NCBI GenBank assembly: GCA_048886185.1
Contig: JBHLKY010000005.1
Coordinates: 60,001 to 92,000, forward strand
Source: Candidatus Hermodarchaeota archaeon
GTDB lineage: Archaea; Asgardarchaeota; Heimdallarchaeia; Hodarchaeales; Hodarchaeaceae
Direction of reading: 5' to 3'
DNA: 32,000 nt
Shown in pieces: positions 19,533-25,288 of the stretch. A program made the position numbers and the translations under genes. Under the pieces are notes generated by a model. The model did not search any database. It was not told the origin of the DNA and saw only the letters and a program-made list of their open reading frames with translations. Every line of letters starts with the position of its first letter. The first letter of the stretch is position 1.

Positions 19533-20723
19533 ATGAGACGCATAAAGTCTTCCTCATCGCAATTAATTATATTATTATTAGCGCGAATAGCTTTTGATCT
19601 TGACTTTCAAAGCATCACATTATATTTCAGTACCTTGAGTGAGTCATATAATGTTCAAATTTGGCTTATGGGGTTCCTTGTATCAGTATATTCGATTTCA
19701 ATTCTTTTAAGTCCAATCTTTGGTAATTTGTCTGACCAATATGGAAGGAAACGATTTCTAACAATTGGTTTAATCTTATTTGGGATAAGTTCTTGGTTTA
19801 TGGTCATTACTCAAAATTGGTTTCAAATCATTTTAGCGCGAGCTTTTACGGGACTATCTTCGGCAATTTTCTTACCTTCTCTGCTAGCACAGTTAGGGGA
19901 TAACTATTCTTATGAAAAGAGATCACGAGCAATGGGACTCGTTCGATTATCATGGCCAATTACCTTCATATTTGGAGTACCGTTAGTAGGTTATTCAATT
20001 GAGCATTTAAATTGGCGTATTCCATTTATCATCCTTGGATTTCTTGCAGTAATTACTTGTGTACTAATAATCTTCATGGATTCTCCAATAAGTGAGATTT
20101 CTAATCAACCAACAATGAAAAAGAGTATCGATTTATTCAAGACGGTTCTATTAAACCGAAATGCGCTTTCAGGGTTACTATTAACGTTCTTTGCGGTGGG
20201 TGCCATTCAGGGTATTTTTGCTTTTTTTCCTGTTTGGATGGAAACTACATTTCAAATAGAAGAGACATATATAGGTATAGTTCTTTCGTTCATGGGAATT
20301 GGGACACTATTTGGTACCCTTCTGGCAACTTGGTTTGGAGACAAGATTGGCCCCAAGCAATGTTCGATATCGGGTTTAATAGTAGCTGCTTGCTGTATGG
20401 TATTGTTATCCAACTTTTCATTCAATATTTCTTTTGTAATTGTCTGGTTAATACTCTTAGGGACAGCATTCGATTTTTCTATGACTGAAGTTCCTGTCCT
20501 TCTCACTCAAGTATCTTCAGGCTCGAAGGGGACAGTTTTATCATTCAATCAAGCTCTGAATGCAGGAGCATCGGCACTTGGCTCAGCTTTAAGTGGAATA
20601 ATATGGATTAGTTTTGGTTATGGAACAATTGGGGTATTATTTGCGATCACTGCTTTCACAGGGGCATTAATTGGTTATTTTAATATTAAGGTTGTTCCAG
20701 AACAATCTTTCGAGAGAAATTAG
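19533..20723 (+). CDS. MFS transporter
   Basis: About 12 hydrophobic segments; motif A GNLSDQYGRK and FGDKIGPK; ARAFTGL. Confidence 0.93.
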   Translation: MRRIKSSSSQLIILLLARIAFDLDFQSITLYFSTLSESYNVQIWLMGFLVSVYSISILLSPIFGNLSDQYGRKRFLTIGLILFGISSWFMVITQNWFQIILARAFTGLSSAIFLPSLLAQLGDNYSYEKRSRAMGLVRLSWPITFIFGVPLVGYSIEHLNWRIPFIILGFLAVITCVLIIFMDSPISEISNQPTMKKSIDLFKTVLLNRNALSGLLLTFFAVGAIQGIFAFFPVWMETTFQIEETYIGIVLSFMGIGTLFGTLLATWFGDKIGPKQCSISGLIVAACCMVLLSNFSFNISFVIVWLILLGTAFDFSMTEVPVLLTQVSSGSKGTVLSFNQALNAGASALGSALSGIIWISFGYGTIGVLFAITAFTGALIGYFNIKVVPEQSFERN

Positions 20724-21733
20724 TCCTCAATCTCCTCAATCTCCCCGTAACACTGAGATTTAGCAAAAAGAATGCCGATCAAATGACGAGGAGCTTGAAT
20801 ATCATGGTCAACTCGTAGATGATAGATGACGTTCTTAAAATCATCAAGTGAAACATCCTCATCAATTTTAAGTTCCCCATACACAGTTAAGTCAACCATC
20901 TGTTCAGTATCAAGGAAATATTCAAAGAAAGAACGAGTAAGATGGACATCAGAGTCAAAACTTTTTTGAACGACCCGAGGAAGACGATCACCTCTATATT
21001 TCTCAATCTTGGAACAATCTTTAGCTTTTTTGACAAGATGTAAATAGAGATGGGAAGGAACCCAGATGCGTTCAATATGTTCAATTTTTTGGATTTTCTT
21101 GAAAGTATCCCGTGTAATATCTGGTCCTAATAGGAGATTCTTAACCCCAATGATATTGATCTCCTCATCACCAAGATTTCTTAATTCCTCTTCATCAAGT
21201 TCCAGAGAATCAATATTACTTATTGTATTACCATTTTCACCTATAGAGGTATATCGATACCTTGCTAAAACACGATTAATCAATTCAGCAACACTAATCC
21301 CATTCCTCTTTGCAATTCTACTGATGTCCTTATATAAGCGAGAGTCTAAACCACGAATACCAATGACTTTTTCAGACTTAGAGATTTCAATATCTTGAGG
21401 AAGAGGGGGAACTGGGGGAAGAGGGGGAAGAGGTGGAGTGGAAAGATTATGAGGACGAGGTAATCGAGGGTGAATTCTTTCATCTATATCCTCATCTGAA
21501 TTATCAATATCTTCATCATCAAGACTTTCGTTAGGGGGAGAAGACCAGTTAAATAAGAAATCTTCTTCAGAATCCTGATCGTTGCTTTTCTTCGATTTTT
21601 TACGCTGATTTTCCATTATCATCACGATAAATATGAGATCTCTCATGTTCTTCAATGATTTTTTTTGCCATAATAATATAAGAAGAGGGATCAAAGTGGT
21701 TTGATTCCCGTACATTATTTTTAACCTGTTCAA
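20720..21733 (-). CDS. Hypothetical protein: acidic and polyproline N-terminus, RHH-like segment, duplicated C-terminal unit
   Basis: ESLDDEDIDNSDEDIDE, PPLPPLPPVPPLP, VIGIRGLDSRLYKDISRIAKRNGISVAELINRVL. Repeated units LLLGPDITRDTF...IWVPSHL and LKIDEDVSLDDF...IQAPRHL. ATG at 21616 (MENQRK) is a more plausible start than TTG 21733. Confidence 0.7.
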   Translation of the reverse strand: MNRLKIMYGNQTTLIPLLILLWQKKSLKNMRDLIFIVMIMENQRKKSKKSNDQDSEEDFLFNWSSPPNESLDDEDIDNSDEDIDERIHPRLPRPHNLSTPPLPPLPPVPPLPQDIEISKSEKVIGIRGLDSRLYKDISRIAKRNGISVAELINRVLARYRYTSIGENGNTISNIDSLELDEEELRNLGDEEINIIGVKNLLLGPDITRDTFKKIQKIEHIERIWVPSHLYLHLVKKAKDCSKIEKYRGDRLPRVVQKSFDSDVHLTRSFFEYFLDTEQMVDLTVYGELKIDEDVSLDDFKNVIYHLRVDHDIQAPRHLIGILFAKSQCYGEIEEIED

Positions 21734-21778
21734 TTAAATAATTACACATGAGAGTGCCCCAGAAGATTTTTTAAAGTC

Positions 21779-21817
21779 ATGTTATCATATGTTAACAAAT
21801 GTTATATATAGTTTTCG
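21779..21817 (-). promoter_or_regulatory. Putative BRE/TATA promoter overlapped by three ATGTTA direct repeats at 10-bp period
   Basis: ATGTTA at 21779, 21789 and 21799. The minus strand reads CGAAAAC-TATATATAA (21817-21802), which is BRE plus TATA-like. Confidence 0.55.
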
Positions 21818-21895
21818 ATTCAGAACAACTAACAACAAGTAACTGCAAAGTACTCAAATTTTCAGAAAATAACAACTATTCACCCTTAAAAATGC

Positions 21896-21936
21896 ATTCC
21901 CCCAAAGCTCTCACTTATTAGATGTAAGATAATTTC
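21896..21936. repeat. Intergenic copy of a ~40-nt direct repeat (partner at 22870-22909 inside the kinase gene)
   Basis: attcccccaaagctctcacttattagatgtaagataatttc versus attccccaaagctctcccttattagatgtaagataatttc: one substitution and one extra C. Confidence 0.92.
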
Positions 21937-22088
21937 ATTTAATGCCTCCTTATGAAGATTCGTTTAATAAAAACCTTATTTTTATCTGATTTACTTTGAG
22001 AAGCCGTAGATTAAGTAGTTTAGCTTCTAATACTGTAGAAGTAGGTTTTTCATTGTTAGTAGAAGGTATTAACTAACTTCTAAGATGT

Positions 22089-22493
22089 CTAAAGTTTCCC
22101 AAATAGTTTAAAAATGAATTCTTCTAGGTTTTTGGAGATACCTGATGGTTTTTTGAATTCATTCTCGTGAGGGCAATAATCATCTGTAATCATTCGATGT
22201 TCTATCATATCCCAAATAAAAGGATAGAATTGACAACCTTCAGGTCGAATTTCATATATGATGCATAATCCGTGTTGATCAAGAAAGTAACATTGGGTCT
22301 TTTGATCAGTCTGTTTATTTCTTAGTGCTTTATATCCGTCATTATTGATAACAACAAATTCTTTAGCAGGGATTGACATCATTGTGACGATTCTATGAAT
22401 ATCTTTCTTTGTTAAAAGCATCTCTGTCTCATTGCAACAGTGATGACATTTATATTTCAGACAAATTTCTCCATCAACATTTTTCCTACCCAT
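22089..22493 (-). CDS. YkgJ/UPF0153 family cysteine-cluster (putative Fe-S or Zn) protein
   Basis: CLKYKCHHCC, CYFL, CIIYEIRPEGCQFYPF, YCP. Confidence 0.9.
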   Translation of the reverse strand: MGRKNVDGEICLKYKCHHCCNETEMLLTKKDIHRIVTMMSIPAKEFVVINNDGYKALRNKQTDQKTQCYFLDQHGLCIIYEIRPEGCQFYPFIWDMIEHRMITDDYCPHENEFKKPSGISKNLEEFIFKLFGKL

Positions 22494-22544
22494 TGGTCTT
22501 ATCTCTTATTCAGTAAACTGTTACTTTACGTAAAATTATATCTA

Positions 22545-23318
22545 TTAAGTATACAAAATAAACCCTGGTGAAGATAAACTATTATCAAGGTATGTATCAA
22601 CTGTTTCAGCTAATTCAGCAAGATTGTCTTTGAGTAGCGTGAATATCAGTGCCAATTGATATTTAAAAGCTTTTTTTGCTCGTGGGTCTGCTAAAATGTT
22701 AACAATGTTCAAAATACTTTTGTAATTCTCGAGTAGACGTTTTTCGGTGATCAGTCCAGTTAATTTTTTTATCGCTTGTTCCAAACCCTGCTTTGAATCC
22801 TTTATCCATGGATAATATAAGCACAGTTCGCTGCCAGTTATGTCTCTTGAGAAGCAGTTCTCGAAATCTATTCCCCAAAGCTCTCCCTTATTAGATGTAA
22901 GATAATTTCCTCCATGACGATCAAGTGCTCCAATCCAAGCTTCAAATACAAAGAGATCTAGAATATCTGTTTCTTTGATTGATGTCGATGTGCTGCCAAG
23001 AGAAACAGCTAATTCCTCAGCTCTTTCTACCCATTCTTGCAATAAACCGAGTGAATAGCCTCTCCTAGAAATAATTGATTGTGGAATGCGGATTCCAAGC
23101 TCAGATGCTAATGTTGAAACAATGTATTCTCGAATCAACTTATTGAGAGTTAATTTTTTCCATAACCAAATCCGATCATCATTGTCAATGAAAAATTGTG
23201 ATTGATCTTGGAAATTTGAACCCCTAATCTCTTTTGAGAATGAAGTCTGAAAGAGTATAATTGCCTCTTTTTGGTGCCGTGGATAGAGTTCTATCTCTAA
23301 GTGATTGGAATTTTTCAT
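22545..23318 (-). CDS. HipA-like / PI3-PI4-kinase-like atypical kinase
   Basis: RGSN (Gly-loop equivalent), WLWKK, REYIVSTLASELGIRIP, catalytic FEAWIGALDRHGGNYL, Mg-binding WGIDFENCF. GGTGA SD. Confidence 0.85.
   Translation of the reverse strand: MKNSNHLEIELYPRHQKEAIILFQTSFSKEIRGSNFQDQSQFFIDNDDRIWLWKKLTLNKLIREYIVSTLASELGIRIPQSIISRRGYSLGLLQEWVERAEELAVSLGSTSTSIKETDILDLFVFEAWIGALDRHGGNYLTSNKGELWGIDFENCFSRDITGSELCLYYPWIKDSKQGLEQAIKKLTGLITEKRLLENYKSILNIVNILADPRAKKAFKYQLALIFTLLKDNLAELAETVDTYLDNSLSSPGFILYT
22870..22909. repeat. Coding copy of the ~40-nt direct repeat (encodes NYLTSNKGELWG of the kinase)
   Basis: Direct sequence comparison with 21896-21936. Confidence 0.92.
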
Positions 23319-23323
23319 TAAAT

Positions 23324-23363
23324 TTCACCATACGAGCGTGTATTTGGTGAATGGATTCTTCAT
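23324..23363 (-). promoter_or_regulatory. SD-occluding hairpin and 12-codon uORF upstream of the kinase
   Basis: TTCACCA (23324-23330) and TGGTGAA (23345-23351) form an inverted repeat with an inner TAC/GTA pair. uORF ATG 23363 to TGA 23325 (MKNPFTKYTLVW); its stop lies within the GGTGA SD. Confidence 0.5.
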
Positions 23364-23488
23364 TTCGCCTTAAGACCACAATTCTCACATCTCTTACAAG
23401 CTATAGGGACAGCTAGGATTTTAGAAAGGAGACTTGGGTTAAATTACTCAATTTACGTTCTTTTACAGTTGATTTTTGATTTTTTCTA

Positions 23489-24502
23489 GTGAAATTATCC
23501 GCTAGGTCAGAAGATAAGTACAAATTGGTTTTTCTCTTACAAACTTCGATCATAGATTTTTGGTCATCATCAGTCAAAAACTTTTTATTATCAAATGGAG
23601 CCAGAGAGAGTGTGATCCATATAGATACAAGGAAACTCCCAAGATCTGTTCCTCTTTTAGTGGCTTTTATTGGAGTAATTATTACTATTATTTTATCGTT
23701 TGTCATGAATAACTTCTTTATTTCTCAAAGCATTAACCTTCTAATTGGGTGGATTTTTCTTTTATCTATGATAGTTTTTGTGATATTGTATTTTTTTTCT
23801 CGCTTTCTCTTGAAAAATTCTCAAATAAGAATAAACAAAGAAATTGCCGAATTTTATTATCCTTTAATGAATAATCCATTATTAGGTGCTTCTGAGGTTC
23901 ATGAGTATGCTAAACAACTTGATAATGCATTCAAAGGACTTGATTCCTGGACTAATTTAACAGAAAACGAATATATTCATTGGGCTGAAACTAAAACTAA
24001 GTTAAACCAATACAAAGAAGCTCGTAAGCTGATTGAAAAAGCCCTCTACATAAATCCAAAGAATAATAGAGCATTTTGGAAATTACTCTACAATTTAAGA
24101 TTCTTAGAGAAGGAAGTCCTTGCTATCAAATATTTAGATATCTTTTCTGAGATAATTCAAGATCCTGGAATTAAAAATTTTCTTAAAGCTCTAATATATG
24201 AATCACGATATCCTAGTGAAGCTAGAATTTTCCATGAACTAAGTAGACACGAAGGTATCAACATTAAATCACAAGACCAATTAAAGTTAAATGATTATCT
24301 AGAGAGCCTTTTCTCCACATTTAATAATCCAGAATTATTAGCAAAACATAAGGAGATATTTATTAACAACTTAGGAAATTATTGGGATTTTCTTACTAAT
24401 CTGTTCCCTAAGACCACTATTCTGGAGATCTATTACCTTCTTGAAAAAATACAGGAGAAATACGGTAAAGAATGGCTCGGAAGTAAACAACGATTCTCAT
24501 AA
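23489..24502 (+). CDS. Membrane-anchored TPR-like protein
   Basis: Two hydrophobic helices (about aa 52-103), then TPR-like YKEARKLIEKALYINPKNNRAF. GTG start. Confidence 0.75.
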   Translation: MKLSARSEDKYKLVFLLQTSIIDFWSSSVKNFLLSNGARESVIHIDTRKLPRSVPLLVAFIGVIITIILSFVMNNFFISQSINLLIGWIFLLSMIVFVILYFFSRFLLKNSQIRINKEIAEFYYPLMNNPLLGASEVHEYAKQLDNAFKGLDSWTNLTENEYIHWAETKTKLNQYKEARKLIEKALYINPKNNRAFWKLLYNLRFLEKEVLAIKYLDIFSEIIQDPGIKNFLKALIYESRYPSEARIFHELSRHEGINIKSQDQLKLNDYLESLFSTFNNPELLAKHKEIFINNLGNYWDFLTNLFPKTTILEIYYLLEKIQEKYGKEWLGSKQRFS

Positions 24503-24556
24503 CAGTATATTAATTAGATTTGGAAGAAAAACTGAAGAGATCGTAGAGAAGTGTCA

Positions 24557-25120
24557 CTATTCTTTTCGGATTCGTTTTCTACCAAATAAATCAGTATCCT
24601 TAATTTCTAAATCTTCATTCTGTTGTACATATTGGTGTTGTTCAAATTTATTGAGAGCTTCTTCAAACTCCCCAAGGTTTTGCTTAAGTGTTTCAAATCC
24701 TTTTATAAATCTTAAAGAGAGACCAAGGACAAAACTCGCATATTGAATTTCAGAACCACCAATCCGTGTATTCAATTCATGCCCCAGTTGCATTTTGATG
24801 AATGAAATTGCTTGTCTACCTTCGATTGTGTCCCTTTTTTCTAAATAATGGTAAAGTAAACCTCCAAAATTATAACCCCACATTTTTGCTATATCATCTT
24901 CAGAACCTCCAACCAACAAGATAGTATTCTTTGCTGCTTCATATGTCTGGTCAAATTGTTCAATGATACCACTTGCTAACTCATTGGAAATTTTAAGGTG
25001 AGCTTTTAATTGAGAGACCTTTTTAGCAAGTTGTGTAATTTCTTCTTTCCCAGCTTCAGAATACATCTTTTCTAAATGCTCTGAAGTGATTCTTTCACGA
25101 GATTCTTGAGTGGGACACAT
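24557..25120 (-). CDS. Hypothetical helical protein
   Basis: 187-aa ORF with natural composition; GAGGTAA upstream of the ATG; no recognised motif. Confidence 0.7.
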   Translation of the reverse strand: MCPTQESRERITSEHLEKMYSEAGKEEITQLAKKVSQLKAHLKISNELASGIIEQFDQTYEAAKNTILLVGGSEDDIAKMWGYNFGGLLYHYLEKRDTIEGRQAISFIKMQLGHELNTRIGGSEIQYASFVLGLSLRFIKGFETLKQNLGEFEEALNKFEQHQYVQQNEDLEIKDTDLFGRKRIRKE

Positions 25121-25288
25121 AATCTCATTACCTCGTTAAATTTCACATATATTTTGATACTATTTTCCCCTTATTAGCTTTATAAAATTAAATACTAATT
25201 TGTATTTCATAATACACTTATTTAAAACTACTGATATTGAATAAAGAATGAGTTGAAAGTTTTAATAACAATATTTCAGGAGAATAAA

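Follow-up and report, generated by a model that had tools for sequence, protein, structure and literature searches.

An intergenic stretch of about 41 nt in the genome of a Candidatus Hermodarchaeota archaeon was found to be a near-identical copy of catalytic-loop codons from a kinase gene on the same strand, 973 bp away. This intergenic copy (copy A) is probably templated filler DNA, left at the junction of a lineage-specific deletion by template switching or microhomology-mediated repair. Comparison with related genomes established that genes were lost, that the copy sits at the left breakpoint, which sequence was its donor (copy B), in which direction copying went and that the copy is restricted to this lineage. 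The window analyzed is the whole stretch of 32,000 nucleotides (assembly GCA_048886185.1, contig JBHLKY010000005.1, positions 60,001 to 92,000), and all positions are numbered from its first letter.

The repeat pair and its support in the assembly

The repeat pair and the genes next to it are as follows.

21896 to 21936 (core 21900-21936, possible extension to 21890), minus strand: copy A, the intergenic copy of the kinase catalytic-loop codons, from repeat search, shuffles and BLAST
22870 to 22909 (BLAST extension to 22864), minus strand: copy B, the donor within the kinase ORF, from repeat search, ORF and orthologues
22545 to 23318, minus strand: 257-aa PI3/PI4-kinase-like or HipA_2-like kinase, from the ORF and sub-threshold Pfam matches
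22089 to 22493, minus strand: 134-aa CxxCxxCC (PF03692, YkgJ-like) protein, from Pfam, a conserved partner downstream of the kinase

The core match, 21900-21936 against 22873-22909, has the same orientation and 36 of 37 identical nt, with one mismatch. With an ATT and a C5/C4 run added it becomes 21896-21936 against 22870-22909, 41 against 40 nt with one 1-nt indel. BLAST extended the pair to 21890-21936 against 22864-22909 (43/47). Copy B encodes NYLTSNKGELWG, which lies between the DRH and IDF motifs. Copy A lies between the YkgJ-like gene and a 49-aa ORF (21600-21749, minus strand). In the kinase frame it reads NYLTSNK-stop-ELWG, a G-to-T change making the TGA, and it has one additional C/G in a homopolymer run compared to copy B. 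No kinase likeness was found around copy A at the DNA or protein level. No tRNAs were predicted in the window.

A sequence-only reading of the window had described a coding segment of 40-41 nt between the DRH and IDF motifs that recurs in the same orientation with one substitution and one indel, and this was confirmed at 21896-21936 and 22870-22909, copy B being inside the 257-aa kinase ORF. It had also held that the similarity stops abruptly on both sides. This was the case on the ykgJ side, while on the other side the similarity may fade over about 6 more nt. Its view that the match is beyond chance within 32 kb agreed with the shuffles, as none of 100 dinucleotide-shuffled windows contained a pair of matches at three or fewer mismatches. 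Copies A and B were the sole such pair in the whole assembly of 4.84 Mb (35% GC, 96% complete). Genome-wide, local short repeats amounted to about 28 pairs in the 4.84 Mb once scaffold-gap artefacts were set aside, so copies A and B are not part of a pervasive repeat family.

Coverage across both copies was taken from Logan contigs (k=31) of four runs, X1, X2, X3 and X4. The stretch was found in one study only, of sediment metagenomes, and none of the runs listed for it is recorded as RNA. The runs and a second MAG belong to this study and are probably the source samples, and they show that the assembly is correct rather than representing an independent population. In X1, X2 and X4 a single contig each spanned 21400-23400, free of joints and with 0-1 differences, while the contigs of X3 covered it in pieces. 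A minor haplotype in X3, with four SNPs at 21829-21882, merges into a shared unitig holding copy A. Another haplotype has six SNPs in the 5' half of the kinase gene and keeps both copies. The second NCBI MAG and further Logan contigs were identical over 20000-25200. Copies A and B are real DNA and have reached fixation in the population sampled, with two strain variants among their carriers.

An assembly or scaffolding artefact as the source of copy A can be set aside with near certainty. The genome does contain at least 17 scaffolding artefacts in the form of exact 77-nt duplicates spaced 177 nt. There are no Ns at the locus of copy A, however, and at 23 nt the longest exact word common to both copies falls short of k=31 and is therefore too short to confuse the assembly graph. 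Contigs of several runs and the second MAG hold both copies in identical form, and two haplotypes share them. Of the third alternative in the earlier reading, a micro-duplication or an assembly artefact, the first half was essentially right and the second half fell to these contigs and the MAG.

The 77-nt direct duplicates, for example C5:170281-170534, were seen at a minimum of 17 sites. The assembly has 3400 Ns in total, and at the C40 site that was checked Ns lie between the 77-nt copies. These duplicates have the appearance of products of scaffolding, k=77 overlaps on either side of 100-N gaps, and not of biological repeats. The SNPs of the strain variants were strongly clustered. The X3 minor haplotype has 4 in 54 nt (21829-21882) and 12 in 131 nt (23232-23362), and a contig of SRR30758829 has 6 in 105 nt (23042-23146). 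Between the clusters 1.35 kb were identical, as were about 22 kb leftwards. The clusters look like short recombination imports from a donor lineage diverged by 6-9%.

Slippage or single-strand annealing between direct repeats of 37-41 nt can produce deletions, and the pair was considered as a recombination substrate or a programmed excision site, where a 973-bp circle or deletion would switch the kinase off. In the recombinant the kinase would end after NYLTSNK or a little further on, and ykgJ and the 3' half of the kinase gene would be gone. No contig in the four runs joined across the repeats, contigs being prone to drop rare variants. There is no integrase or reverse transcriptase nearby and the relatives are without such repeats. 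Excision at this pair is extremely unlikely.

The pair resembles a diversity-generating retroelement (DGR) in being a near-identical direct repeat of which the 3' half of a gene has one copy and nearby non-coding DNA the other. It differs in that the repeat is only 41-47 nt and that the sole substitution does not fall on a template adenine of the coding strand. A search of the 96%-complete genome for a reverse transcriptase (PF00078) was negative, and the earlier reading had noted no cas, reverse transcriptase or integrase gene in the window. DGR-like or other reverse transcriptase-mediated copying was rejected on the missing enzyme and the single non-adenine difference.

The kinase gene and its YkgJ-like partner

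The kinase scored below the Pfam cut-offs, with 23.2 bits for HipA_2 (cut-off 27) and 22 for PI3_PI4_kinase (cut-off 27.1). Its NCBIfam matches were likewise sub-threshold only (SCO1664 family, 21 bits against 172). The YkgJ-like gene, the 49-aa ORF and the proline-rich protein beyond it had no NCBIfam match. Orthologues of the kinase (55-60% amino acid identity) and of the YkgJ-like protein (55-67%) were present in at least seven genomes of the genus, and the upstream neighbors of the pair are likewise conserved in the genus. The kinase orthologues sit in MAGs labelled Candidatus Hodarchaeota or Promethearchaeota (Asgard archaea). No close kinase paralogue was found anywhere in the genome. 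The ORFs upstream of the kinase matched no Pfam family at E <= 0.01, and hence no HTH was detected there.

The earlier reading had called the kinase HipA-type. A HipA-type toxin was not supported, given the HipA_2 match below its gathering score, the vertical inheritance and the stable neighbors. In place of the features of a HipA-type toxin module a sub-threshold kinase was found next to a CxxCxxCC protein, with no adjacent HTH antitoxin. From its distribution the gene seems to be chromosomal and inherited vertically, rather than a mobile toxin. The conserved CxxCxxCC partner, the vertical inheritance and the lack of an adjacent HTH antitoxin all argue against a HipBA-type toxin module.

A second, distant pair of a kinase and a CxxCxxCC protein was seen in convergent orientation at C14:49412-51529. 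It consists of a 378-aa kinase-like protein (DPDRNAGNYL...IWGIDYE) and a 316-aa CxxCxxCC-type protein. Together with the conservation of the pair across the genus this suggests a functional partnership of kinase and CxxCxxCC protein rather than a toxin-antitoxin module. In three relatives (G012, G018 and YT5_056; loci L007, L010 and L011) the gap between kinase and ykgJ is about 1.27 kb, compared to about 50 nt elsewhere. This spacing indicates that something is inserted between the two genes in these genomes.

Gene loss and anatomy of the junction

Gene order was compared with G010, a complete genome from the same genus. There the order is p187, TPR, kinase, ykgJ, a gene for a 352-aa protein, a gene for a 277-aa ArsR-type protein, the 49-aa ORF, the proline-rich protein, a histidine kinase and an MFS gene, followed by five more genes matching the upstream genes of the window in order. 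The 352-aa protein is secreted and acidic and the 277-aa protein is a membrane protein with an ArsR-type HTH. The run from kinase through ykgJ and the 352-aa gene to the ArsR-type gene was also present in G017. The window genome is collinear with G010 on both sides and is without the 352-aa and ArsR-type genes, a missing stretch of about 1.98 kb as measured on G010. In tblastn searches of the 96%-complete assembly no homologue of the 352-aa protein was found, and the ArsR-type protein had only distant matches (28-36% identity). The closest relatives have 67-70% DNA identity in the surrounding coding DNA. As reconstructed from these genomes, the comparison shows an ancestral order of kinase, ykgJ-like, 352-aa, ArsR-type, 49-aa ORF and proline-rich genes, from which about 2 kb was lost in this lineage.

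The features at and beyond the junction are as follows.

21939 to 22088, minus strand: intergenic DNA from ykgJ to the next gene, kept, from alignment to G010 and G017
21918 to 21938, minus strand: start codon of the lost gene (21938-21936), opening an accidental six-codon micro-ORF, MKLSYI-stop, from sequence and alignment
21830 to 21895, no strand: junction segment, with the right breakpoint somewhere inside
21795 to 21815, minus strand: BRE/TATA-like promoter of the 49-aa ORF, CGAAAAC and then a TATA run, conserved in G003 and G010
21600 to 21749, minus strand: 49-aa ORF, the first gene past the junction, conserved in relatives
20720 to 21616, minus strand: 298-aa proline-rich protein, collinear with G010 and G017

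The minus orientation of the promoter is presumed from general knowledge of archaeal promoters. The 49-aa ORF overlaps the start of the 298-aa protein, which has a PPLPPLPP stretch and an acidic N-terminus. The two are conserved as a pair in G003, G010 and G017, with 66-78% for the larger protein, and neither belongs to a Pfam or NCBIfam family. Between the proline-rich and MFS genes G010 has a gene for a 467-aa histidine-kinase-like membrane protein (L024:2189-3592). The window genome is without it (at about 20720), and its proline-rich and MFS genes overlap by 4 nt there. Going by gene order, the absence of this gene is another indel in the same neighborhood.

On the left side of the junction, 21939-22088 (minus strand) aligns over 139-145 nt, with 73-74% identity, to the DNA between ykgJ and the 352-aa gene in G010 and G017. 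This is above the 67-70% of the surrounding coding DNA. The stretch holds a promoter-like AT-rich box and an AAGGAGG Shine-Dalgarno sequence (21945-21951), and the homology also takes in the ATG with which the lost gene began. The 352-aa gene and the kinase of G008 are on different contigs, and the homologue of 21945-22030 lies directly upstream of the 352-aa gene. Since it travels with that gene, the stretch is the 5' region of the 352-aa gene itself. Homology to relatives reaches the ATG, and copy A starts at the G of this retained ATG (21936). By the alignment, the deletion has its left breakpoint either at the start codon of the lost 352-aa gene or past it. The strong Shine-Dalgarno sequence and six-codon micro-ORF are thus an orphaned translation start running into copy A.

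An inverted repeat at 22010-22050 (CTTCTA...TAGAAG; outer GAAGC...GCTTC) comes shortly after the end of the ykgJ-like gene. Its sequence is conserved in G010 and G017, though neither in G003 nor in G008. A terminator is one possible role, and a place in the regulatory region of the lost gene another.

On the right side, copy A is followed by about 45-66 nt with no detectable homologue, after which homology resumes from about 21845 downwards, with the BRE/TATA region of the 49-aa ORF in G003 and G010. Against the lost region in G010 and in G017, the 3' end of the ArsR-type gene included, the segment 21830-21895 showed no homology above shuffles; 129 of 300 and 191 of 300 shuffles scored as well as the real alignments. 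It also had no match to the regions upstream of the 49-aa ORF in relatives, where local alignment of the upstream region was convincing over the promoter only.

At the left joint the shared sequence is a single nt (G), or 3 nt with one mismatch if ATG is set against AGG. The 5' codons of the lost gene in G010 and G017 matched the kinase segment at 11 of 14 nt (MAFFT), a suggestive match that was left out of the argument as a post hoc choice within AT-rich sequence. A second templated piece, 21886-21899 against 22108-22121 in the 3' end of ykgJ (13/14), overlaps copy A by ATTC. It was rejected as being at chance level, with 102 of 200 shuffles equal to it.

Origin and meaning of the intergenic copy

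The orthologous kinases match copy B at 35-39 of 46 nt and keep the segment as coding sequence, so copy B is the ancestral copy. Copy A matches its own kinase at 43 of 47 nt and the orthologous kinases at 32-35 of 46. Being closer to its own kinase than to the orthologues, copy A was copied from copy B in this lineage, after its divergence from every sampled relative. In seven relatives (4.9-20.5 kb searched in each) the genome's own catalytic-loop 46-mer had no second copy, the best second match being 13 nt or less. The earlier reading had proposed checking whether orthologous loci keep the intergenic copy co-varying with the kinase codons, and none of the seven loci has one.

That reading had listed as one alternative a plus-strand sRNA antisense to the kinase mRNA, acting as an RNA antitoxin or guide-like regulator. 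Such a trans-antisense sRNA, as hypothesized, would run from about 21835 to a T5 run near 21980, about 150 nt, and its 41-nt core would pair with the catalytic-loop codons and repress or destabilize the kinase mRNA. The near-perfect duplex of 41 nt would be thermodynamically strong, and the TATA run at 21803-21811 is roughly symmetric and could fire both ways, with the T5 run downstream on the plus strand. The seven orthologous loci, however, have no copy despite their conserved kinase-ykgJ pair. The only TATA box nearby has its BRE-like CGAAAAC on the minus-strand side, and the promoter is conserved with the 49-aa ORF in G003 and G010, which would orient the TATA for that ORF. Predicted folding of the plus strand (MFE -10.4 kcal/mol, z = +0.54) was no better than that of shuffles, nor was folding of the minus strand (z = +0.76). 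Rfam at gathering thresholds gave no match in the window. The kinase, being under the HipA_2 gathering score and vertically inherited with stable neighbors, is unlike a toxin-antitoxin module. Copy A is exactly at the gene-loss breakpoint, which explains its position without any function. A functional antisense RNA at this locus is accordingly rated as very unlikely.

The likeness to trans- or cis-encoded antisense RNA antitoxins (type I/III-like) and to HipBA-type modules is that the mRNA of a HipA-like or PI3/4K-like kinase has a complementary sequence close by. HipA toxins are neutralized by the HipB protein and not by an RNA. Copy A differs from such systems in having neither conservation nor structure and no promoter evidence, and the kinase is paired with a CxxCxxCC protein in synteny across the genus. 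A templated insertion may by accident have created a newborn trans-antisense RNA through divergent firing of the TATA of the 49-aa ORF, for which the probability is similarly very low. If true, this would be a case of a trans-antisense RNA observed as it arises, in an Asgard archaeon, with its 41-nt core pairing with the kinase mRNA.

Another origin for copy A would be a 973-bp tandem duplication followed by an independent illegitimate deletion, or the last piece of a decayed kinase paralogue. The hypothesized duplicated unit would comprise the 3' part of the kinase gene, ykgJ and the intergenic DNA up to the ATG. The left junction, with the ATG joined to the start of the copy B sequence, is the joint expected of such a tandem duplication, and the one substitution and one indel could reflect age. 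The duplication needs two independent illegitimate events instead of one, and the paralogue three. No leftover similarity to the kinase or ykgJ was found in DNA or protein beyond the 47 nt on either side. Nor does the ykgJ side leave room for a paralogue, homology to relatives running up to the ATG there, and the genome has no other close member of this kinase. This origin is unlikely. A tandem duplication with a nested deletion would give the same left joint and direct orientation, and by sequence alone is indistinguishable from a one-step event; it differs in needing two events and in that no trace of the rest of the duplicated unit is present.

Templated filler at the deletion junction is the reading that we consider probable. 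Copy A is at a breakpoint (the left joint), has a nearby ancestral donor and is absent from unrearranged relatives. Of the earlier suggestion of a recombination or integration scar bracketing the ykgJ gene and the 3' half of the kinase gene, the recombination scar comes closest, as the junction of a deletion of about 2 kb. The integration does not, the kinase-ykgJ pair being ancestral and syntenic.

In the proposed event about 2 kb would have been lost, from just past the ATG of the 352-aa gene through the ArsR-type gene. A free 3' end, either a stalled nascent strand or a resected break end, would have paired with the kinase gene on the same strand, about 1 kb back, and copied 41-47 nt of it. 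It would then have jumped ahead and resumed past the ArsR-type gene, across the deletion. This would be a single event of the MMBIR, template-switch or synthesis-dependent MMEJ class of templated insertion. In a two-step variant with the same product, the 973-bp tandem duplication would have come first and most of the second copy would then have been removed by a nested deletion. The one substitution and the one homopolymer indel of copy A could be copying errors or later drift. With its in-frame stop and no partner in relatives, copy A probably needs no function.

Insertions templated from nearby sequence at rearrangement junctions, often imperfect and with zero to a few nt of microhomology, are an outcome of template switching (PMC8421209; PMC7954356). 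Copy A resembles the filler of MMBIR, FoSTeS and synthesis-dependent MMEJ in being a short copy of nearby sequence from the same chromosome at a deletion junction. It is likewise imperfect (PMC8421209; PMC7954356), and any microhomology at the left joint would be at most a few nt. In yeast MMBIR insertions the template is typically 100 bp or less away (PMC8421209), whereas here it is 973 bp away. This mechanistic comparison draws on eukaryotic literature, while the host is an uncultured Asgard archaeon and the evidence is comparative rather than before and after the event.

A further local repeat was seen in the same genome. On C48, 4611-4677 and 6858-6924 are 89.6% identical over 67 nt in the same orientation, 2.2 kb apart. 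The source corresponds to residues 1001-1022 of a 1275-aa ORF, and the copy is in a stretch with no long ORF and has abrupt ends. From these features the C48 copy may be a second templated-insertion scar, which hints that templated copying recurs in this genome.

Read as a scar, copy A would be an ordinary, neutral mutation of little biological weight. This reading removes a false lead, that of an RNA antitoxin for a HipA-like kinase, and explains why a perfect Shine-Dalgarno sequence precedes a six-codon micro-ORF. It would have modest value as a new documented example of a known process in Hodarchaeota, a group close to eukaryotes.
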